From the NCBI GenBank assembly GCA_014729505.1, contig WJJS01000001.1, forward strand, positions 12,938 to 76,937: DNA of 64,000 nt, in the 5' to 3' direction. The position numbers and the translations under genes were made by a program. This DNA comes from Candidatus Woesearchaeota archaeon. Its GTDB lineage: Archaea > Nanobdellota > Nanobdellia > Woesearchaeales > ARS49. This document shows positions 17,518 through 54,433 of the stretch, one piece after another; position 1 is the first letter of the stretch; the number at the start of each line of letters is the position of its first letter. Under the pieces are notes generated by a model that saw only the letters and a program-made list of their open reading frames with translations, searched no databases and had not been told where the DNA came from.

Positions 17518-17605
17518 AGTCTCTTTTTTATTGCAGGAAAAAGTTCAAAGTTATAAACTTTTCAGCGACAATTTTTTAAAGAATCCGATGAAAAAGCATC
17601 CGTAC

Positions 17606-17640
17606 GGGCCGGTAGCTCAACCTGGTAGAGTGCTCCGTTG
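17606..17640 (+). repeat. Direct repeat: duplicate of tRNA-Ala nt 1-35 (5' segment)
   Basis: GGGCCGGTAGCTCAACCTGGTAGAGTGCTCCGTTG is identical to 17730-17764. Confidence 0.85.
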
Positions 17641-17696: not shown

Positions 17697-17729
17697 TTTT
17701 ATGAATAGGTGTTTTTAGTATACGTTTAT

Positions 17730-17803
17730 GGGCCGGTAGCTCAACCTGGTAGAGTGCTCCGTTGGCTTCGGAGAGGCTGCGGGTTCAAATCCCGCTCGGT
17801 CCA
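17730..17803 (+). tRNA. tRNA-Ala (anticodon GGC), no intron
   Basis: Manual fold: acceptor GGGCCGG/TCGGTCC with G3:U70, D-arm GCTC-AACCTGGTA-GAGT, anticodon stem CTCCG/CGGAG with loop TTGGCTT, T-arm GCGGG-TTCAAAT-CCCGC and discriminator A. Confidence 0.85.
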
Positions 17804-17857
17804 TGGGTGGCCTTGACGCCCTTTTTTTGATCAAACTTTTTGTAAAAGTTTGCGGTT

Positions 17858-17879
17858 AGAGGCTGCGGGTTCAAATCCC
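17858..17879 (+). repeat. Partial duplicate of the tRNA-Ala 3' portion (variable arm plus 5' T-arm)
   Basis: AGAGGCTGCGGGTTCAAATCCC matches tRNA-Ala nt 44-65 but lacks the acceptor 3' strand. Confidence 0.7.
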
Positions 17880-20135: not shown

Positions 20136-20253
20136 GGCGGAGTGGCTTAGCCTGGTTAGAGCACCGCGCTCATAGGTCATACCTTTGAGCACTGAGCTTT
20201 CGAGCTATGACGAAGAAACGCGGGGGTCACGAGTTCAAATCTCGTCTCCGCCA
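20136..20253 (+). tRNA. tRNA-Met (CAT), elongator-like, with a 43-nt intron at 37/38
   Basis: Manual fold: acceptor GGCGGAG/CTCCGCC, D-arm GCTT-AGCCTGGTTA-GAGC, anticodon stem CCGCG with loop CTCATA|intron 20175-20217|A then CGCGG, variable GGGTC, T-arm ACGAG-TTCAAAT-CTCGT and discriminator A. Confidence 0.75.
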
Positions 20254-21284: not shown

Positions 21285-22355
21285 TTGCAGATCATGGTTT
21301 ATTCGCTAGTCAGACCGCTGCTTTTTCGCATGGACGCAGAAAAAGTACATCATCGCCTCGTCAGGTTAGGAACGATGCTCCAACAAGTTCCCCTCGTCTT
21401 GCCGGTGCTTCGCAGTATCTTCACGTATCAGCATCCCGCACTACACGTACAAGTGGACGGCGTAGCGTATGAAAACCCGATAGGGTTAGCAGCAGGTTTT
21501 GACAAAAACGGCGAAATACCTCGATTTATGAGCAGTTTTGGTTTTGGACACGTAGAAATAGGCTCTGTGACAAGTAAACAACACACAGGCAATCCAAAAC
21601 CGCGAGTGCATCGCGTAATAGAAGAACAAGCATTAGTTATCAATTATGGACTAGCAAATCACGGTGCTGCAACAGTAAAACGACGAATAGCAGCGTATGA
21701 TGAAAAGATGCCTATTGGAATTAGCATCGCAAAGACACCCCGCGTAGGAGGAGAACAAGGGATACGCGATTACGCACAATCATTTAGAGATCTATCCATG
21801 CATGGAACGTATACGACGATAAACATCAGTTGTCCAAATGTGGCAGACGGAGAAACGTATGGAGAGAATCCCCGATTATTGCGATCTTTATTGCAAACAC
21901 TCTCAAAAGAAAAAATCGTCTCACCCGTATATCTCAAACTCAAACCAGATTATTCGCACAAACAAATCGATGACATACTCGAGGTTATCAATTCGTTTCC
22001 GTTTGTAAAAGGAGTAATCATCGGCAATCTCACAAAAGAACGAAAAGGGGCAGTCGCGAAAAGAACAGAGTCGGGCGGTATCAGCGGAAAACCAACTAGA
22101 AACAAAAGCACAGCATTAATACGATACGTCTACAAGAAAACAAATGGTCAACTCACCATTATTGGGTGCGGCGGTATCTTTACTGCCCAAGACGCGTATG
22201 ACAAAATAACATCCGGAGCAAGCATGTTACAACTCATAACGGGCATGATCTATTTAGGACCTAGCACCATAAGAAACATCAATAAAGGGCTTGTTACACT
22301 GCTCGAACAAGACGGATTTAAAAGCATCACCGAAGCAACAGGTTCGCGAGCGTGA
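21285..22355 (+). CDS. pyrD: Dihydroorotate dehydrogenase (quinone), class 2
   Basis: The N-terminal membrane-association helix is followed by GLAAGFDKNGE and GFGHVEIGSVT.... The C-terminus is IIGCGGIFTAQDAYDKITSGAS. Confidence 0.85.
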   Translation: MQIMVYSLVRPLLFRMDAEKVHHRLVRLGTMLQQVPLVLPVLRSIFTYQHPALHVQVDGVAYENPIGLAAGFDKNGEIPRFMSSFGFGHVEIGSVTSKQHTGNPKPRVHRVIEEQALVINYGLANHGAATVKRRIAAYDEKMPIGISIAKTPRVGGEQGIRDYAQSFRDLSMHGTYTTINISCPNVADGETYGENPRLLRSLLQTLSKEKIVSPVYLKLKPDYSHKQIDDILEVINSFPFVKGVIIGNLTKERKGAVAKRTESGGISGKPTRNKSTALIRYVYKKTNGQLTIIGCGGIFTAQDAYDKITSGASMLQLITGMIYLGPSTIRNINKGLVTLLEQDGFKSITEATGSRA

Positions 22356-22413
22356 AAGAAAACCACGTTCAAATCCGTAAACTTCTTAACTGGGGCATTT
22401 TATGTGCATATAT

Positions 22414-22427
22414 GCCGACGTCGCATA
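22414..22427 (+). repeat. Direct repeat: duplicate of tRNA-Ser nt 1-14
   Basis: GCCGACGTCGCATA is also present at 22540 and 22756. Confidence 0.8.
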
Positions 22428-22437
22428 CTCTGCGTAT

Positions 22438-22462
22438 CGATGTTTTCCGCCATCGACACGGA
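22438..22462 (+). repeat. Partial copy (copy 3) of the conserved tRNA-associated element
   Basis: CGATGTTTTCCGCCATCGACACGGA matches the first 25 nt of the element at 20053. Confidence 0.6.
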
Positions 22463-22539
22463 CGCGCGGCATTCGCTATTGCTCAGCCCCGCAAGACACA
22501 AATCTTAAAAGGCAGTTCCTTTGTTACTCACTTATTCTT

Positions 22540-22718: not shown

Positions 22719-22755
22719 TAAACTTCTTAACTAGTGGCATTTCATGCGCATATAT

Positions 22756-22837
22756 GCCGACGTCGCATAATCTGGTATTGCGCCGGTCTTGAAAACCGGT
22801 TCCCTTGGGTATCCCGGTTCAAATCCGGGCGTCGGCG
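22756..22837 (+). tRNA. tRNA-Ser (TGA), class II with a long variable arm, no intron
   Basis: Manual fold: acceptor GCCGACG/CGTCGGC, anticodon stem CCGGT/ACCGG with loop CTTGAAA, variable arm TTCCCTTGGGTAT, T-arm CCCGG-TTCAAAT-CCGGG and discriminator G. Confidence 0.8.
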
Positions 22838-22891
22838 TTTCTATGACGCGAAAGCGTCATCCCATTTTTGAAGTAGTGATTTGAACCGGGG
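22833..22891 (+). repeat. Left copy of a perfect 59-nt direct repeat (last 5 nt of tRNA-Ser plus 54 nt downstream); att-like
   Basis: CGGCGTTTCTATGACGCGAAAGCGTCATCCCATTTTTGAAGTAGTGATTTGAACCGGGG is identical to 23742-23800. Confidence 0.85.
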
Positions 22892-23068
22892 CCAGTCAAG
22901 CTTTGCTTGACGTTGTCCTGGTTTCAAATCCGGGCGTCGGCGTTGTGGGCGCGTTAGCGCTCTTTTTTGTTGTTGTGATTTGAACCGGGGCCAGTCAAGC
23001 TTTGCTTGACGTTGTCCTGGTTTCAAATCCGGGTGTCGGCGTTGTGGGCGCGTTAGCGCTCTTTTTTT
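22843..23068 (+). repeat. Tandem repeat, ~99 nt x ~2.3. Each unit contains an inverted T-arm-like palindrome and ends with the tRNA-Ser 3' end sequence.
   Basis: The unit is TTGTGGGCGCGTTAGCGCTCTTTTTTGTTGTTGTGATTTGAACCGGGGCCAGTCAAGCTTTGCTTGACGTTGTCCTGGTTTCAAATCCGGG(C/T)GTCGGCG. GGGCGCGTTAGCGCTC followed by a T-run is terminator-like. Confidence 0.8.
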
Positions 23069-29999: not shown

Positions 30000-30107
30000 G
30001 CGCAGATAGTACAATGGCTAGTATAGCGGCCTTCCACTGCACGGCAGAAGCAAGCCGTTGATCCGGGTTCGAAAATGAATCTTTCATCGAATGTCCCGGT
30101 CTGCGCA
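30000..30107 (+). tRNA. tRNA-Gly (TCC) with two introns: 16 nt at 37/38 and 20 nt in the T-loop (59/60)
   Basis: Manual fold: acceptor GCGCAGA/TCTGCGC, D-arm GTAC-AATGGCTA-GTAT, anticodon stem GCGGC with loop CTTCCA|intron 30037-30052|A then GCCGT, T-arm CCGGG-TTCGAA|intron 30074-30093|T-CCCGG and discriminator A. Confidence 0.7.
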
Positions 30108-33863: not shown

Positions 33864-35107
33864 ATGCAATGCAAAGACAATAATAAAGTTTATAGCAAAC
33901 GTCATGTTCTTACCAGTATGCGCGTTTTTGAAAGAGGGGAACTGAGACTCTTATGGCCGTTTTATGCCGATTATCTACTATCACAACTACTCTTTTTTGC
34001 ACCAGCGTTTTACATCGTGTATTTTCTGGATATTGGCCTGTCCTTGTTTCAGTTAGGACTTGTTATGGCTGCAGCACCACTGGCAGGTCTGCTCTTTGAG
34101 ATTCCAACAGGAGCCGTAGCAGATCTGTACGGGAGAAAATTTTCAGTCCTGCTAAGCTTTCTACTGGTAGCAGCAGGTTATTTGCTTCTCTTCTTCTTTA
34201 CAAGTATCCCAGCACTTATTGCCATTTTTGCGTTAATCGGATTTGCAGGAACATTCTGGTCGGGAGCAAAAGATGCGTGGGTTGTTGATCTTATAGGAAA
34301 AAGAAAAACATTACTCCAAATTATTTTGCAAAAGCAGATTTTCTCAGCAGTCTTGGACTAGTCATATCAGGCATCCTTGGAGCGTTCATTGTTGAAGTCA
34401 TTGGCCTACGATCCATATGGTTATTTGCTGCAGGTGCGTACGCGATATCATTTGTAGTTCTACTCACAGCCCCTGAACGTTATCGCAGACGACACACTTC
34501 ATTTAGTCGAGCTCTTAAAACTGTAACACAACAAAGCGGGGATGCGTTACGATACTGTCGAATGCACCACATACTTTACGCATTTTTCATTGCAAGCGCT
34601 CTTTGGCTTATCGCAGGAGCAATAGGAGGAGTCATGGCATGGACACCCTTTCTTATCGAACTTGGTTTTGCAGAACAACACTTTGGCTACTTGTGGAGTG
34701 CGATGGCCGTAGTACAAATGATGGGACTTGCCATCTCACAATTCGCTCTAAAAACGATCTCGTCTCGAAAAGTGATCATTGTTGCCCAGTCATTGTTTGC
34801 TGCAACTCTCCTTGCCGTGTATTGGGTATCTTCACTGCCGTTTGCGTTGTTACTGGTACTGTTTAGCATCTTATTTGCCTCAGCAAAAGCACCTTCATTA
34901 AACGTGTTCTTTCATCGGTTTACTCCTTCATACATGAGAGCAACCATCGGTTCAGTCAAGGCAACACTCGGCGCAGCTATAGCCATACTCATGATGCCGA
35001 TTTCAGGACATTTTATTGACACTATAGGTGCTCAAAACGCATTATTTAGCGCGGGACTTGCATTACTGCCTGCAGTAGGGATATACCTGCTAATGAAAGA
35101 ACACTAA
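33864..35107 (+). pseudogene. MFS transporter interrupted by a frameshift in an A-rich run near 34296-34310 (pseudogene or sequencing error)
   Basis: The N-terminal-half ORF (to 34361) and the C-terminal half (the frame is open from 34289) are both polytopic. The second frame reads ...LSSLGLVISGILGAFIV, continuous with the 34562 ORF. Confidence 0.6.
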
Positions 35108-38826: not shown

Positions 38827-39483
38827 ATGTGTGGCCGCTACGCAATAGTCCAACAAAAAAACGATCTTGAAACATTCTATGACGCCAACATGAAAGCAGC
38901 ATGGAAACCGCGATACAACGCAGCACCCACACAAGAATTACCACTAGTGCTTGACGCAGATCCTGCGCATATCGTAGTCGCTCGATGGGGACTTATTCCT
39001 TTTTGGGCAAAAGACGACAAGATAGGAGCACGACTCATCAACGCACGAAGCGAAACTGTGGCAGAAAAACCGACTTTTCGAACATCGTTTAAGAAACGAC
39101 GATGCCTCATTCCCGCTACACATTTTTACGAATGGAAGAAAACAACAAGCATCAAGAAACCATTTGCAATTCATCTGAAGTCAAAAGAGTTGTTTTCATT
39201 TGCAGGACTGTGGGATGAATGGAAGAGTTCTAAAGGAGAATTGATTCGCACGTTTACAATATTGACGTGCGGTCCTAACAGTGTAATGAAAAAGATCCAT
39301 GATCGCATGCCGGTCATACTCAAAAAATCTGACGAAGAGGCGTGGATGAATCCTACGAGCTCAGAGACTGCACTGCAGAAGTTGTTGAAACCTTTTTCAT
39401 CGTCGCAACTCGTCGCGTACGAGATCAGCACGCTTGTCAACTTGCCGACAAACGACAACCCTGCAGTAGTACAACCAGTCTAA
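38827..39483 (+). CDS. SOS-response-associated peptidase (SRAP/YedK/HMCES family) abasic-site processing protein
   Basis: The N-terminus is MCGRYA (Cys2 nucleophile). The protein is 218 aa and matches the DUF159 pattern. Confidence 0.8.
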   Translation: MCGRYAIVQQKNDLETFYDANMKAAWKPRYNAAPTQELPLVLDADPAHIVVARWGLIPFWAKDDKIGARLINARSETVAEKPTFRTSFKKRRCLIPATHFYEWKKTTSIKKPFAIHLKSKELFSFAGLWDEWKSSKGELIRTFTILTCGPNSVMKKIHDRMPVILKKSDEEAWMNPTSSETALQKLLKPFSSSQLVAYEISTLVNLPTNDNPAVVQPV

Positions 39484-40009: not shown

Positions 40010-40324
40010 ATGGGACATACCGTATGGAGCCAACGGATGAATGCAGAGCGCATCATCACAGAACTACTTCGTTACAAGAAAGCATTGCGAAGCGAACAAC
40101 AAGCACTGTTTGACGAATTACTGAAACGATCCATGAATCATCTCGGTACCATAAGTTACGCAAACAGCATGCACACCTGGGCATTACTGCTCTTATCAAT
40201 ACTACTAGAACAAGAACAACGCATAAAGAAACTAGAACATGTGGTTAATAGATACCTATCAAAAAAAGAACAAGATCGTCGTGTGGCTGAAAACGAAAAC
40301 GACGAATATGCATCGAACCTATGA
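40010..40324 (+). CDS. Hypothetical protein; 3' end overlaps the polymerase gene start, so the extent is uncertain
   Basis: 104-aa ORF that overlaps 40239..42794 by 86 nt in another frame. Confidence 0.3.
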   Translation: MGHTVWSQRMNAERIITELLRYKKALRSEQQALFDELLKRSMNHLGTISYANSMHTWALLLLSILLEQEQRIKKLEHVVNRYLSKKEQDRRVAENENDEYASNL

Positions 40325-42794
40325 GTACTCTGTCACACTCTACGCACACGAAGATGCACGAGAATTCCTTACAACGAACAAGATTGCTTTTACAGAACAA
40401 CTCAAAAAAGATCCTTTTCGCAACAAGAAACATGTTCTTGCCATAACGTTATCATGCGAACGACTCGCACCATTTGTAAGATGGTTTGAACTCGGCACCA
40501 AACACCGCATACCGCTTTACAATGCAGATATCACGCCGGAACAACGCTTTCTTTACGAGAACAAGCTAGTACCGTGCAGCAACGTGCGAGACGTTGATGG
40601 GAGACTTGTACACGTCAACGAATCCGCACCACCGCTAAGCACTGTTCATTTGCGATGCGCCACACAAGGACCTATTACACGATTAGAATACCAGGATCAC
40701 ACTATCGTAGGCGAGGAACGAGAAGTACTCGCGCATTTTACGCAACGCTTCAGACAGGACGATCCAGATGTACTACTTATGCGACGAGCATACAAAGCAG
40801 TACCACATCTCTTTGAACGGTTACGTGCGAACGGATTGCACGTGCCTTTTCATCGATGGGATGAGATACCGCTGCGCCACCGCGGCGGCAAGACACACTT
40901 CAGTTACGGAAGAGTATATTATCAAGATCACTCGTTTCAACTGCGAGGACGATTACTCGTTGACACGGCAAGCAGTGTAGGATCAACATGCTCTGTACCT
41001 GCAATCATCGAACTTGCACAGCTCACAGGCACTCGATTCCAACGCGTAGCAGCACGCAGTTTCGGTGCCTCATTTCAACTTCAACTCGTCAAAGAACTGC
41101 TCGCCCAAGATCTGCTTGTGCCATACAAGGAAAAACCCTTTGATGAACCGCTGCGCATGACAGAGTTATTCGACGCAGACAGAGCAGGACATACCTTTGA
41201 TCCTCAACTAGGATTTCACAATGATGTTGTAGCAATAGACTTCTCAAGCATGTATCCATGGATCATCCACAACTACAACATCAGCGCAGATACCATACTC
41301 ACAAAAAAAGGAAAGAAGACCAAGATTCCTGCAGTACCAATTGATGTAACCACACAATATCAAGGAGTGATACCAAAAGCAATCAAACCATTGTTAGATC
41401 GACGCATGTACTACAAAAAACATCCGACGCCGGAAAACAAACGACGAGCAATAGGACTAAAAACACTGCTCGTGACCTGTTATGGTTATCTGCGATTTCG
41501 CGAATTTAAAATGGGACTTGCCACATCACACATGGCAATTTGTTCATACGCGCGAGAACTCCTCCTACAATCAGCAACGCTTGCAGAAGAACAAGGCTTT
41601 CGCGTCATTCACGGCATCATCGATTCACTCTACATATCAAAAAAAGACATTACCACAACAGAAGTCGAAACATTTCGAAAAGAACTAGAACACATGAGCG
41701 GTATACCCGTTGCCTGCGATGGCATCTTCAAATGGATCGTGTTTCTTTCACGACGACATGACAACACTGTCGGAGTGCCGGCCCGTTATTTTGGCGCATA
41801 TAAAAATGGTGGCATTAAAGCAAGAGGTATTGAAGTACGACAATCGAGTGCGCCGCTACTTATACGACGATTCCAACAAAACGTGTTAGAAGAGCTCGCA
41901 GCGTTTTCAACGAAAAGAGCGATACAGGATCACTTGCCACAAGTCATGAAACGCGCACGAGCAGTCCTGCACGATCTGCCTGCGACGCCACGAGAAGAAC
42001 TGTGTTGCAGAATACGCATCAGTAAGACCACGTATTCTCGAAACATTCCACAACGGCAAGTGATACGCTTGTTAACACAACAAGGGAGAGACATTATCGC
42101 TGGACAGGTCATACGGTTCTGGTACAGTGCGAATGGACCGTTACTAGTCGATATGACTGGAAGGCCAGACTACAAAAAATATCGCGATTTGTTATTACGC
42201 GCAATACACTCAGTGTACCAGCCTTTCGGTTATACTACCAAACAACTACAACACCTCCTATTAGACGAATATCAAAGCGTTCTGCAAGATTTTGCGCGAC
42301 AACAGATCCGCTACGAATACGTGCCTATGAAAAAACACTATGCACAAAAACGAGGACTGTCAGAGAGAATCCTGCGACAACGACTGGAACGACAAGGATG
42401 GACGGTGTGGCGCGGCGGCAGCATACATATTACTCGTTATGAAGAACTGTATCCCAACGTACGACGAAAGTACGAATTACTCATCCGTCTGCTTGACGAT
42501 CATAAGCCAGACACAAAAGAAATACTGCAATATTATTGCATGATACAGCACGGCATGCCAGATTTTCTCTGCTACAAAAATGGACGATTCAAATTTGTTG
42601 AATGCAAATTGCAATACGAGCAATTAAGTCATCGACAAAAACGCTGCATTATGAAGCTACAAGACCTGGGATTTGATGTGGAAGTTCACAAACTCGTTGA
42701 CAAACGCACAAAAATGAGAGAGGCACTAGTTGACATGTTTACCAATTGCAAAATAGTACGAGAACGACAACTAGCCCTACTCTCAACATGGTGA
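40239..42794 (+). CDS. Divergent family-B DNA polymerase (exonuclease-dead, motif C degenerate; PolB2/Dpo2-like) fused to a C-terminal PD-(D/E)xK Hjc/VRR-NUC-like nuclease domain
   Basis: The PolB N-terminus is WLIDTYQKKNKIVVWLK.... The exonuclease region is present but Exo I reads LRCAT, not FDIET, and Exo II has no YN..FD. GRLLVD and motif A DFSSMYPWII are present. Motif B is K..LVTCYGYL, the KxY region is YFGAYKNGGIKARGIEVRQSS, and motif C is IHGIIDSLY (vs YGDTDS). The C-terminal domain reads ERILRQRLERQGWTVWRGG ... GMPDFLCYKNGRFKFVECK (D...E-x-K). Confidence 0.65.
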   Translation: MWLIDTYQKKNKIVVWLKTKTTNMHRTYEYSVTLYAHEDAREFLTTNKIAFTEQLKKDPFRNKKHVLAITLSCERLAPFVRWFELGTKHRIPLYNADITPEQRFLYENKLVPCSNVRDVDGRLVHVNESAPPLSTVHLRCATQGPITRLEYQDHTIVGEEREVLAHFTQRFRQDDPDVLLMRRAYKAVPHLFERLRANGLHVPFHRWDEIPLRHRGGKTHFSYGRVYYQDHSFQLRGRLLVDTASSVGSTCSVPAIIELAQLTGTRFQRVAARSFGASFQLQLVKELLAQDLLVPYKEKPFDEPLRMTELFDADRAGHTFDPQLGFHNDVVAIDFSSMYPWIIHNYNISADTILTKKGKKTKIPAVPIDVTTQYQGVIPKAIKPLLDRRMYYKKHPTPENKRRAIGLKTLLVTCYGYLRFREFKMGLATSHMAICSYARELLLQSATLAEEQGFRVIHGIIDSLYISKKDITTTEVETFRKELEHMSGIPVACDGIFKWIVFLSRRHDNTVGVPARYFGAYKNGGIKARGIEVRQSSAPLLIRRFQQNVLEELAAFSTKRAIQDHLPQVMKRARAVLHDLPATPREELCCRIRISKTTYSRNIPQRQVIRLLTQQGRDIIAGQVIRFWYSANGPLLVDMTGRPDYKKYRDLLLRAIHSVYQPFGYTTKQLQHLLLDEYQSVLQDFARQQIRYEYVPMKKHYAQKRGLSERILRQRLERQGWTVWRGGSIHITRYEELYPNVRRKYELLIRLLDDHKPDTKEILQYYCMIQHGMPDFLCYKNGRFKFVECKLQYEQLSHRQKRCIMKLQDLGFDVEVHKLVDKRTKMREALVDMFTNCKIVRERQLALLSTW

Positions 42795-46024: not shown

Positions 46025-46106
46025 TCCCCGCCCCCGGACTCAGCGTTAACCTGCGGTTAACTGGCTGCAGAAAACACTTCGTGTTTTTGCAGTGAACCAG
46101 GAACCT
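46025..46106 (-). repeat. Partial duplicate of the tRNA-Tyr 3' portion (variable arm to 3' end) with a 50-nt hairpin-rich insertion in the T-loop
   Basis: The minus strand reads AGGTTCCTGGTTCA, then a 50-nt insert, then AGTCCGGGGGCGGGGA. Perfect palindrome TGAACCAGGAACCTGGTTCA is on the plus strand at 46093-46112. Confidence 0.65.
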
Positions 46107-46144: not shown

Positions 46145-46268
46145 GTCCCCGCCCCCGGACTTGAACCAGGAACCTCGCGGTGACGGCTGACTCGCCTTCA
46201 CGTCTCGAGCGTTGCTCGGAATCAGTTGAGTTTCTACAGCCGCGCGCTCTACCATTGAGCTAGGCGGG
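46145..46268 (-). tRNA. tRNA-Tyr (GTA) with a 51-nt intron at 37/38
   Basis: Manual fold on the minus strand: acceptor CCCCGCC/GGCGGGG (C1:G72, archaeal Tyr identity), D-arm GCTC-AATGGTA-GAGC, anticodon stem CGCGG with loop CTGTAG|intron|A then CCGCG, T-arm CCTGG-TTCAAGT-CCGGG and discriminator A. Confidence 0.75.
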
Positions 46269-46346
46269 GATAGACGAGAAAAAAAACTACGGGGTTTAAA
46301 AGGGTTTTGGACGAAAAGACATAAATATCCCTTGCTTTGAGCCTTT

Positions 46347-53574: not shown

Positions 53575-53901
53575 TAACAGTAGTTTTTTTTTTCGAGAAT
53601 ACAGGTTGTTGCGTTACAGGTTATACCTCAAGCCAGTACCAGAATTTTCTACCGTAGCGCTTATCGCAGCCCTGATGGTAGTTGTTGGAGGTTTCTTGAT
53701 AGTAAGGCGGCAAGCTTAAGGATTTTGGCCTAATCCGCTCAATTTTGGCCCGTTATCACCAACTAGGCCTTAAAAAGGGTAAGATTTATAAACCCCCTCA
53801 AGTTTTTTTGGAAAAAATGGCGGGTAGACATAATTCTCACTGAACTGCAAACTATGTGAGTGAGACGTCTATCACACGTGAGGAGTCATAATGACCCTTG
53901 C

Positions 53902-54025
53902 GCCCTGGTAGTGTAGTGGCCTATCATGAAGCCCTGTCGAGACGAAAACCGTCGCATAAAGGCTTCGACCCGGGTTCAAAGACGGCGTCGGGTTAACCGA
54001 TCCGCTGAAATTCCCGGCCAGGGCG
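53902..54025 (+). tRNA. tRNA-Asp (GTC) with two introns: 20 nt at 37/38 and 30 nt in the T-loop (59/60)
   Basis: The exons read GCCCTGG TA GTGT AGTGGCCTA TCAT G AAGCC CTGTCG|...|A GGCTT CGAC CCGGG TTCAAA|...|T CCCGG CCAGGGC G. They are near-identical to a typical archaeal tRNA-Asp. Confidence 0.7.
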
Positions 54026-54063
54026 TGTGCTCAGCATCCAGCATGCTGGGAGTATACAACAAA

Positions 54064-54179
54064 GGGCCGGTAGCTCAGCCTGGTAGAGCACCTGACTTTT
54101 ATGAAAGTCAAGGACATCAGGTGGTCGCGAGTTCAAAACGATCCCGCGTATGCGGTTCGTGAACGTCTCGTCCGGCCCA
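54064..54179 (+). tRNA. tRNA-Lys (TTT) with two introns: ~14 nt at 37/38 and ~28 nt in the T-loop (59/60)
   Basis: GGGCCGG TA GCTC AGCCTGGTA GAGC A CCTGA CTTTTA|...|A TCAGG TGGTC GCGAG TTCAAA|...|T CTCGT CCGGCCC A. Confidence 0.65.
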
Positions 54180-54187
54180 TTTTTACT

Positions 54188-54433
54188 ATGGCAAAAACAA
54201 CCTTCGACGTATCCAAACACGTGCTTGTACCAAAGCACAAAAAGGTGAGTGAAAAGGAGAAAAAAGAATTACAAGAGCGATACTCCCCCTCACTAAAAGA
54301 ACTGCCGCGCATCCTACAAAACGATCCTGCAATACAACATCTCGACATCAAAGAGAACGACGTTATCAAGATCGAACGCAAAAGCATGACTGCAGGAACG
54401 ATCACTTTCTATCGGAGGGTATCGAATGGTTGA
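54188..54433 (+). CDS. rpoH: DNA-directed RNA polymerase subunit H (Rpo5)
   Basis: MAKTTFDVSKHVLVPKHKKVSEKEKKELQERY...DVIKIERKSMTAGTITFYRRV. The track ORF start at 54101 overlaps tRNA-Lys, so the ATG at 54188 was chosen. Confidence 0.8.
   Translation: MAKTTFDVSKHVLVPKHKKVSEKEKKELQERYSPSLKELPRILQNDPAIQHLDIKENDVIKIERKSMTAGTITFYRRVSNG

Follow-up and report, generated by a model that had tools for sequence, protein, structure and literature searches.

Position 59/60 is a listed non-canonical site of tRNA introns (PMC4090602), and introns bounded by bulge-helix-bulge (BHB) motifs are known in T-loops (PMC3241643, PMC6379350). Canonical and relaxed BHBs have both been found in anticodon, D-, and T-loops (PMC6379350, PMC3241643, PMC5829648), and archaeal EndA recognizes the BHB at any location (PMC6379350, PMC3241643). 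Relaxed motifs, for their part, require a broad-specificity (αβ)2 or ε2 EndA (PMC6379350, PMC3241643, PMC5829648). Multiple-intron tRNAs are a well-known trait of Thermoproteales, which carry 0.84 introns per tRNA gene versus 0.21 for archaea overall (PMC8450103), and in the DPANN genomes surveyed by Kaneta et al. (2018) an α4-type EndA with an "L3" loop goes with more disrupted tRNA genes (PMC5829648). Here, we describe three tRNA genes (Asp, Lys, and Gly) that are each interrupted at 37/38 and again at 59/60, within a 64-kb stretch of DNA that was analyzed as a whole and is called the window below. We consider it very probable that all three are functional tRNA genes interrupted by introns, that their host is a Woesearchaeota-like DPANN archaeon, and that each precursor has two BHBs, with predicted splicing at both.

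The structures of the three genes are given in Table 1 together with the other tRNA genes of the window. The initial annotation had proposed a canonical 37/38 intron in tRNA-Asp and tRNA-Lys, and both were borne out, with a cloverleaf after splicing. It had also placed an insertion of about 28 to 30 nt in the T-loop of both genes, between positions 59 and 60; the site held, as did the length in tRNA-Lys, but the tRNA-Asp insert measures 31 nt. The 20-nt intron that it reported at the same site of tRNA-Gly was recovered as well, and this gene has a 37/38 intron that had gone unmentioned. After removal of the introns, the T-loops read UUCAAA/U in tRNA-Asp and tRNA-Lys and UUCGAA/U in tRNA-Gly (the slash marks the junction). 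According to spliced alignment and in-silico splicing, the junctions of tRNA-Asp and tRNA-Lys are dictated by the cloverleaf, there being no equivalent shifted 59/60 junction, and spliced alignment reproduced the exon and intron coordinates of tRNA-Asp. The exons of all three genes are colinear within 108 to 124 nt, which sets them apart from split or permuted genes. tRNA-Asp and tRNA-Lys are probably cotranscribed; a T-run is absent after tRNA-Asp and present after tRNA-Lys; downstream of the latter lie rpoH, a split rpoB, and rpoA′/A″. tRNA-Gly is preceded, at a distance of about 32 nt, by a TATA-like box and is followed by a T-run. The 90 nt upstream of tRNA-Asp have an unusually stable predicted fold (z = −3.25). 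Neither tRNA searches nor a BHB scan found a further Asp, Lys, or Gly tRNA gene in the 64-kb window.

Table 1. Interrupted and uninterrupted tRNA genes of the window, and the adjoining rpoH gene
Feature	Coordinates	Strand	Details
tRNA-Gly(TCC) gene	30000-30107	+	exons 30000-30036, 30053-30073, 30094-30107
Gly intron 1	30037-30052	+	16 nt, 37/38
Gly intron 2	30074-30093	+	20 nt, 59/60
tRNA-Asp(GTC) gene	53902-54025	+	exons 53902-53939, 53960-53980, 54012-54025; CCA not encoded
Asp intron 1	53940-53959	+	20 nt, canonical 37/38
Asp intron 2	53981-54011	+	31 nt, T-loop 59/60, TTCAAA-intron-T
tRNA-Lys(TTT) gene	54064-54179	+	exons 54064-54101, 54116-54137, 54166-54179; T-run after gene
Lys intron 1	54102-54115	+	14 nt, 37/38
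Lys intron 2	54138-54165	+	28 nt, 59/60
rpoH (Rpb5 C-terminal domain)	54188-54433	+	leads rpoH-B″-B′-A′-A″ operon
tRNA-Ala(GGC)	17729-17804		intron-free
tRNA with CAT anticodon (Met or Ile2)	20136-20253	+	43-nt 37/38 intron, 20175-20217
tRNA-Ser(TGA)	22755-22838		intron-free
tRNA-Tyr(GTA)	46146-46269	-	52-nt 37/38 intron, 46182-46233

Standard tools do not see these genes. Run on the window, default ARAGORN and the Rfam tRNA model at its gathering threshold each missed all three, and with a permissive Rfam threshold tRNA-Lys gave a partial match of 25.4 bits that skipped both inserts, tRNA-Gly one of 13.5 bits, and tRNA-Asp nothing. Deleting the 37/38 insert alone yielded no tRNA in any of the three genes, while deletion of the 59/60 insert alone let ARAGORN call an intron-containing tRNA in each. 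With both inserts deleted, ARAGORN returned perfect cloverleafs of 73 nt (Asp), 74 nt (Lys), and 72 nt (Gly). A SPLITS-like scan of the whole window, in which all BHB candidates with a score of 7/8 or more were deleted and ARAGORN rerun with its intron search, recovered all three genes along with two weak matches, at 39059-39176(-) and 22303-22485(-). We regard the latter as false, as both fall within ORFs or overlap them and such matches are as frequent in five dinucleotide-shuffled windows, where the same scan gave 0 to 2 spurious matches each. Asp, Lys, and Gly tRNA genes are essential, and default ARAGORN and the Rfam tRNA model are blind to them here. Finders lacking a BHB-aware intron search thus under-count the tRNAs of DPANN archaea, and completeness estimates built on such counts drop as well.

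BHB motifs were modeled at each junction, as the initial annotation had recommended. Every junction was scored against the archaeal BHB geometry, in which a 4-bp central helix (H) is bordered by 3-nt bulges, cleaved behind their second base, and flanked by an outer (h) and an inner (h′) helix. The register was exact at 6/6 junctions. The H helix is complete (4/4) in every intron except the 37/38 intron of tRNA-Asp, which has 3/4; h, which is the T-stem or the anticodon stem, was paired 2/2 in all six, and h′ 2/2 in five of the six. Both introns of tRNA-Lys and both of tRNA-Gly form a strict BHB with 8/8 scored pairs, including both 3-nt bulges at 59/60, and each intron of tRNA-Asp scored 7/8. 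At 59/60, the T-stem serves as h, bases U54-U55-C56-R57 pair with intron positions −3 to −6, and an intron hairpin supplies h′; the 5′ bulge is made of A58-A59 and the first intron base, and the 3′ bulge of the last two intron bases and U60. In tRNA-Lys, H is UUCA:UGAA, the bulges are AA/A and CG/U (the slash now marking the cut), and h′ runs CGA:UCG and then CCGC:GCGG. In tRNA-Gly, H is UUCG:CGAA, with G57 paired to C, so that the pair covaries relative to tRNA-Asp and tRNA-Lys. The 59/60 motif of tRNA-Asp pairs U54U55C56A57 with UGAA (4/4), has bulges AA/G and AU/U, and opens h′ with a mismatch (A·C) followed by three pairs. Its 37/38 motif has a C32×U mismatch in H, bulges CG/A and AA/A, and GACG:CGUC as h′. 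Considering only the pairs not dictated by the tRNA itself (H and h′), 34/36 were standard over the six introns (P ~8e-13 at 0.375 per pair).

In unconstrained minimum free energy (MFE) folds, h and h′ form and H is paired only in the Gly 59/60 motif, the other five motifs having an internal loop in its place. An open H helix is usual for BHBs in such folds, and thermodynamics alone does not predict the BHB motif. When both BHBs were forced in one fold, the cost over the MFE was +3.9 (Asp), +5.1 (Lys), and +1.8 (Gly) kcal/mol, and the acceptor, anticodon, and T stems remained intact. Each precursor therefore accommodates two independent, non-overlapping BHBs, at 37/38 in the anticodon arm and at 59/60 in the T-arm.

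Altogether, the window has 7 tRNA genes with 8 introns (1.14 per gene), three of them at 59/60. The relaxed motifs that it contains are confined to the canonical 37/38 position, in tRNA-CAT and tRNA-Tyr: the former has an h′ of 6 bp and pairs H only 2/4, and the latter pairs H 3/4 and is devoid of an in-register h′. ARAGORN had called a "Ser-CGA" at 20136, a miscall for the gene whose anticodon is CAT. The long tRNA-Tyr intron was considered as a possible C/D-box RNA, which was rejected, as an Rfam match and a 5′ C box are both absent. The long tRNA-Tyr introns of relatives have GGATGA...CAGCTGA-like pieces in common, and the copy in the window matches no Rfam family. Several of these genes are also accompanied by partial copies of themselves. 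The 5′ 34 nt of tRNA-Ala are repeated at 17603-17640 and its positions 42 to 63 at 17858-17879, and positions 44 to 57 of tRNA-Tyr recur at 46093-46106 and 58 to 73 at 46025-46040, the copies being 52 nt apart. tRNA-Ser is flanked by 2.1 repeats of a 99-nt unit (22865-23067); in each complete unit the 3′ end of tRNA-Ser is copied, and a hairpin and a T-run come after it.

We then looked at the orthologous genes of relatives. A search of a species-representative genome collection with RpoB″ gave 58 rpoB loci (best identity, 75%); those with a phylum label come from Woesearchaeota, Nanoarchaeota, or Nanobdellota metagenome-assembled genomes, and some records are labeled "archaeon" alone or, doubtfully, "Methanosarcinales". 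Judged by these matches, the host of the window is a Woesearchaeota-like DPANN archaeon. The mature tRNA-Asp and tRNA-Lys sequences of the window were spliced-aligned to the 3-kb region preceding rpoB at every locus, first with a plain cost and then with a BHB-aware one, and rpoH served as the synteny anchor for locating the orthologous pairs. Orthologues were found for Asp in 41 of the 58 loci and for Lys in 49, and the gene order Asp-Lys-rpoH is conserved across relatives. In the closest ones (L001, L002, and L054), an Asp gene is absent within 3 kb upstream of rpoH. Exons are strongly conserved, with 58 to 73 of 73 to 74 positions identical across the clade. Among the 41 Asp genes, 26 have an intron at 59/60, 17 at 37/38, and 6 in the D-loop, one has an unresolved T-loop insert, and 6 are intron-free. 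The 49 Lys genes include 16 with an intron at 59/60, 26 at 37/38, 23 in the D-loop (19 of them at 19/20), and 4 at 30/31, with 7 free of introns. There are at most 3 introns in a gene and on average 1.32. The 59/60 introns amount to 42 orthologous cases of 13 to 75 nt. The D-loop introns at 19/20 have a weak outer helix and make use of conserved D-loop bases.

Pairing across the 59/60 junction was assessed in 45 fixed-frame T-arm constructs (alignment A1), in which the T-stem is 100% paired, H 96.5%, and h′ 62%. The pair between base 57 and intron position −6 is A:U in 23, G:C in 12, G:U in 3, and unpaired in 5. Its covariation score of 0.368, computed on sequences that are phylogenetically related, compares with 0.146 ± 0.015 after shuffling (0/500 shuffles reach it) and 0.04 to 0.13 with slid partners. 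The relatives' junctions were chosen by the BHB-aware aligner, which is a bias towards structure, and the plain aligner had already assigned 59 to 22 junctions of Asp and 6 of Lys. Most of the remaining T-loop introns, above all those of Lys genes whose loop reads UUCG, were assigned by it to 56, where they scored poorly as BHBs, and these shifted to 59 only under the BHB-aware cost. Intron sequences drift faster than their surroundings: between genomes whose exons are 99 to 100% identical, orthologous introns are only 81 to 89% identical. Since structure is conserved while sequence drifts, length varies, and presence differs among orthologues, the 59/60 inserts are best read as spliced introns, and expanded loops, pseudogenes, and assembly artefacts were rejected on the same observations. 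The initial annotation, which had preferred introns to expanded T-loops, is upheld on this point by the variable lengths, by the orthologues that have no insert, and by the 57:−6 covariation.

From what is known of archaeal tRNA processing, EndA would cut both bulges of each BHB, that is, at four sites per precursor, and an RtcB-type ligase would presumably join the three exons. No tRNA_int_endo (EndA) or RtcB domain was found among the 58 ORFs of the window. As modeled, the T-arm BHB ties up bases 54 to 57 and holds 58 to 60 in bulges, and formation of the T-loop and its docking onto the D-loop to build the elbow would be possible only once the 59/60 intron is gone. Addition of CCA would be post-transcriptional, because none is encoded. 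T-loops almost always contain UUCR. An insert with YGAA-NN at its 3′ end would accordingly be expected to give a legal BHB at 59/60 of any tRNA, and we propose that the site recurs because the conserved T-loop UUCR supplies half of the BHB helix.

The T-loop site could also be taken as the sign of a lineage-specific EndA with relaxed or unusual recognition, to which the 59/60 inserts would owe their splicing, as the initial annotation had concluded from the position. The literature does tie non-canonical and multiple introns to EndA with extra loops, e.g., the "L3" loop that α4 enzymes carry in several lineages of DPANN (PMC5829648), and the relaxed motifs of tRNA-CAT and tRNA-Tyr, as well as the weak outer helix of the relatives' 19/20 introns, point in the same direction. 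However, intron position does not demand relaxed specificity (PMC6379350, PMC3241643), the hBHBh′ at 59/60 is strict or nearly so in all three genes, and the window's relaxed motifs are those of the canonical position, which defeats the argument from 59/60. Because the 59/60 BHBs are strict, a relaxed EndA is not needed there, and we find this reading doubtful; given the relaxed 37/38 motifs, the host may still need some EndA tolerance. An unusual intron position and a relaxed endonuclease, which are often merged, are thus separable ideas. The initial annotation had further suggested spread by a common mechanism. One version would derive the three 59/60 introns from a single mobile intron by recent spread, as in Thermoproteales, which would agree with a site shared by three of the seven tRNAs of the window and by many relatives, and with an exon-pairing YGAA that would suit any T-loop. 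One weak likeness even crosses positions, between the 59/60 intron of Lys in L020 and the 19/20 intron of Lys in L045 (~70% identity). Nevertheless, the six introns of the window show no pairwise similarity (15 pairs; z ≤ 1.1, p ≥ 0.18 against shuffles) and, beyond YGAA, none to the introns of relatives, and, of the 33 intron pairs at least 70% identical among relatives, 27 match a gene's intron to the one at the equivalent position of that gene in a close genome, a pattern that points to vertical descent. Recent spread is therefore unsupported and in our judgment improbable, an older transposition behind the 59/60 introns being possible, and recurrence at this site is better explained by the conserved UUCR.

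Two further readings were weighed. If the inserts were retained, the genes would be pseudogenes or would encode tRNAs with enlarged T-loops, which would fit the failure of standard finders to call them. We hold this to be extremely unlikely: the exons are strongly constrained around inserts of 13 to 75 nt that are missing in some orthologues, BHB pairing is kept with covariation, the Asp-Lys-rpoH synteny is maintained, the window has no other Asp, Lys, or Gly gene, and a T-loop locked in a helix could not make the tRNA elbow. Disrupted tRNA genes have also reportedly been viewed by Randau and Soll as a form of protection, and T-loop introns might then persist by breaking the tRNA 3′ attachment sites of integrating elements. 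In the window, the genes flanked by partial self-copies (Ala, Ser, and Tyr) have no T-loop intron, and the three with 59/60 introns are free of such copies; tRNA-CAT is likewise without them. Yet the contrast is one of 3/4 versus 0/3 (p ~0.11), no integrase turned up beside the tRNA fragments, and the 3′ end is duplicated in 3 of the 90 Asp and Lys orthologues, two of which carry a 59/60 intron. Duplications are thus not fewer where T-loop introns are present, and we discarded the idea as unsupported in the 90 orthologues and give it little credence for the window. Splicing of both introns from functional Asp, Lys, and Gly precursors remains the reading that we favor.

The 59/60 introns of these three genes belong to an already-known type, and no new kind of system is opened by them; the increment here is descriptive. 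It consists of a comparison, across relatives, of a T-loop hot spot for introns that lies outside Crenarchaeota, with 42 orthologous 59/60 introns, their covariation, and their presence or absence from one relative to the next. In this sample of two gene families and one window, 59/60 looks like a dominant intron site of the clade. We would tentatively go further, at somewhat less than even confidence, and suggest that Woesearchaeota may match or exceed the intron load of Thermoproteales, with introns concentrated at 59/60 and 19/20, where they would pair with loop bases that are conserved across the tRNAs analyzed and normally form the elbow, as "universal-site" introns fit for any tRNA, and would be handled by a simple α4-type EndA with the DPANN L3 loop. 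If true, this would represent a second independent proliferation of tRNA introns and a test of what limits intron position.

Among described systems, one likeness is to the T-arm introns of nucleomorph and red algal (C. merolae) nuclear tRNAs, which share the T-arm site and sometimes occur 2 to 3 per gene, but are eukaryotic, measure 3 nt in some cases, follow recognition rules that are partly unknown, and are unrelated by descent (PMC4090602). Relaxed BHB/BHL introns (hBH, HBh′), in which a bulge or flanking helix is missing or disrupted, are cut only by (αβ)2 or ε2 EndA (PMC3239211, PMC3488258, PMC6379350). They often lie at non-canonical sites, and tRNA-CAT and tRNA-Tyr have relaxed motifs here as well; unlike them, the 59/60 introns of the window are strict, with both bulges, both flanking helices, and 7 to 8 of the 8 scored pairs. 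As far as the families of transposed introns in Thermoproteales (Fujishima et al., 2010) are recounted in PMC4090602 and PMC4033280, they resemble the present case in affecting several different tRNAs at one non-canonical site, and in these accounts they are defined by near-identical introns across different tRNAs, which are absent among the introns of the window. The intron load is high here too, at 1.14 per gene in the window versus 0.84 in Thermoproteales (PMC8450103). The disrupted tRNA sets surveyed by Kaneta et al. come from the same superphylum, one Woesearchaeota genome included (PMC5829648). That survey likewise found multiple-intron tRNAs and incomplete sets from standard predictors; it reports per-genome proportions and not sites (PMC5829648). 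A further match is with the 59/60 introns of Crenarchaeota, especially Thermoproteales, and of Nanoarchaeota, which have the same site, the same hBHBh′ architecture, and a 37/38 co-intron in the gene (PMC4090602), and which, like those described here, are short, variable, and non-coding (PMC4090602). Unlike in those cases, the host here is a Woesearchaeota-like DPANN archaeon, and 59/60 is a dominant site, in 3 of the 7 tRNA genes of the window, 26 of the 41 Asp orthologues, and 16 of the 49 Lys orthologues.

Three tRNA genes of the window that have no T-loop intron, those for tRNA-Ala, tRNA-Ser, and tRNA-Tyr, are flanked by partial copies of themselves. The upstream copy of tRNA-Ala corresponds to the first 34 nt of the gene, up to position 34, lies 124 nt upstream, and is divergent beyond that point. 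Its anticodon would read GCG and its acceptor stem would be an Ala one containing G3:U70, so this copy is probably non-functional. The downstream copy covers positions 42 to 63, is located 86 nt downstream, and falls within a T-arm-like hairpin. These partial copies could be scars of recombination or integration, or else tRNA-derived elements.

The repeat found next to tRNA-Ser comprises 2.1 copies of its unit with 96% identity. In each full unit, an ACCGG strand together with a 7-bp variable-arm hairpin and a T-arm gives the appearance of a class II tRNA 3′ half, and the acceptor 3′ strand of the unit is that of tRNA-Ser itself, with a single mismatch in one copy. A GC hairpin and then a T-run are found 3′ of this tRNA-half-like part. 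The second copy of tRNA-Tyr lies 38 nt beyond the end of the gene, and its positions 57 and 58 are separated by a 52-nt segment containing two hairpins. No bulge-helix-bulge (BHB) motif was found in register at this split, and the copy may represent an att-site-like scar.

Features in and around tRNA genes of the window
Feature	Position	Strand	Context
tRNA-Ala gene	17729-17804		Partial self-copies at 17603-17640 (upstream) and 17858-17879 (downstream)
tRNA with anticodon CAT (Met or Ile2)	20136-20253	+	43-nt 37/38 intron
Tandem repeat, 99-nt unit	22865-23067		Downstream of tRNA-Ser (22755-22838)
Second copy of tRNA-Tyr positions 44-73	46025-46106	-	Downstream of tRNA-Tyr
tRNA-Tyr 37/38 intron	46182-46233	-	Counterparts in L015, L020, L023, L026, L029, L045, L058
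TATA-like box GATTTATAAACC	about 53784-53795		Upstream of tRNA-Asp
Two-hairpin segment, about 90 nt	53812-53901	+	Between TATA-like box and tRNA-Asp
Perfect 12-nt palindrome CCAGCATGCTGG	54039-54050		In 38-nt tRNA-Asp/tRNA-Lys spacer

The two-hairpin segment preceding tRNA-Asp folds with a minimum free energy of -25.3 kcal/mol (z = -3.25), a value equalled by none of 200 shuffled sequences, and no family was matched in an Rfam search of 53800-54300. The segment may serve as a structured 5′ leader, or it may be a co-transcribed small RNA.

Among tRNA-Lys orthologues from the 58 related rpoB loci (L001-L058), 19 of 49 contain a D-loop intron at 19/20, in which the D-loop bases GCCU contribute to the 4-bp central helix of the BHB and the bulge holds G18-G19. 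An intron at 30/31 is present in 4/49, and the window's tRNA-Lys carries neither. The Ser-CGA identity given by ARAGORN to the tRNA at 20136-20253 is a miscall, as its anticodon is CAT. The BHB of its intron has a 6-bp inner helix and in-register bulges on both sides but is relaxed, as only two of the four central-helix pairs form.

Two protein-coding observations were also made. In an ORF at 40239-42791 (+; 851 aa), a family B DNA polymerase domain occurs together with a VRR-NUC nuclease domain at the C-terminus. The halves of an MFS transporter occupy two ORFs (33864-34358 and 34562-35104, +) separated by about 200 nt; the gene may be split or frameshifted, or it may be a pseudogene.

The 37/38 intron of tRNA-Tyr is long both in the window and among the relatives (52 to 61 nt), and a segment close to its 3′ end pairs with its 5′ end; the L045 gene has an additional 34-nt T-loop insert. 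A 5′ C box is absent from these introns, and the window's intron matched no Rfam C/D family. Most of them contain GGATGA or GTGATGG followed, after 8 to 12 nt, by CAGCTGA, motifs that resemble pieces of a k-turn or of C′/D boxes.
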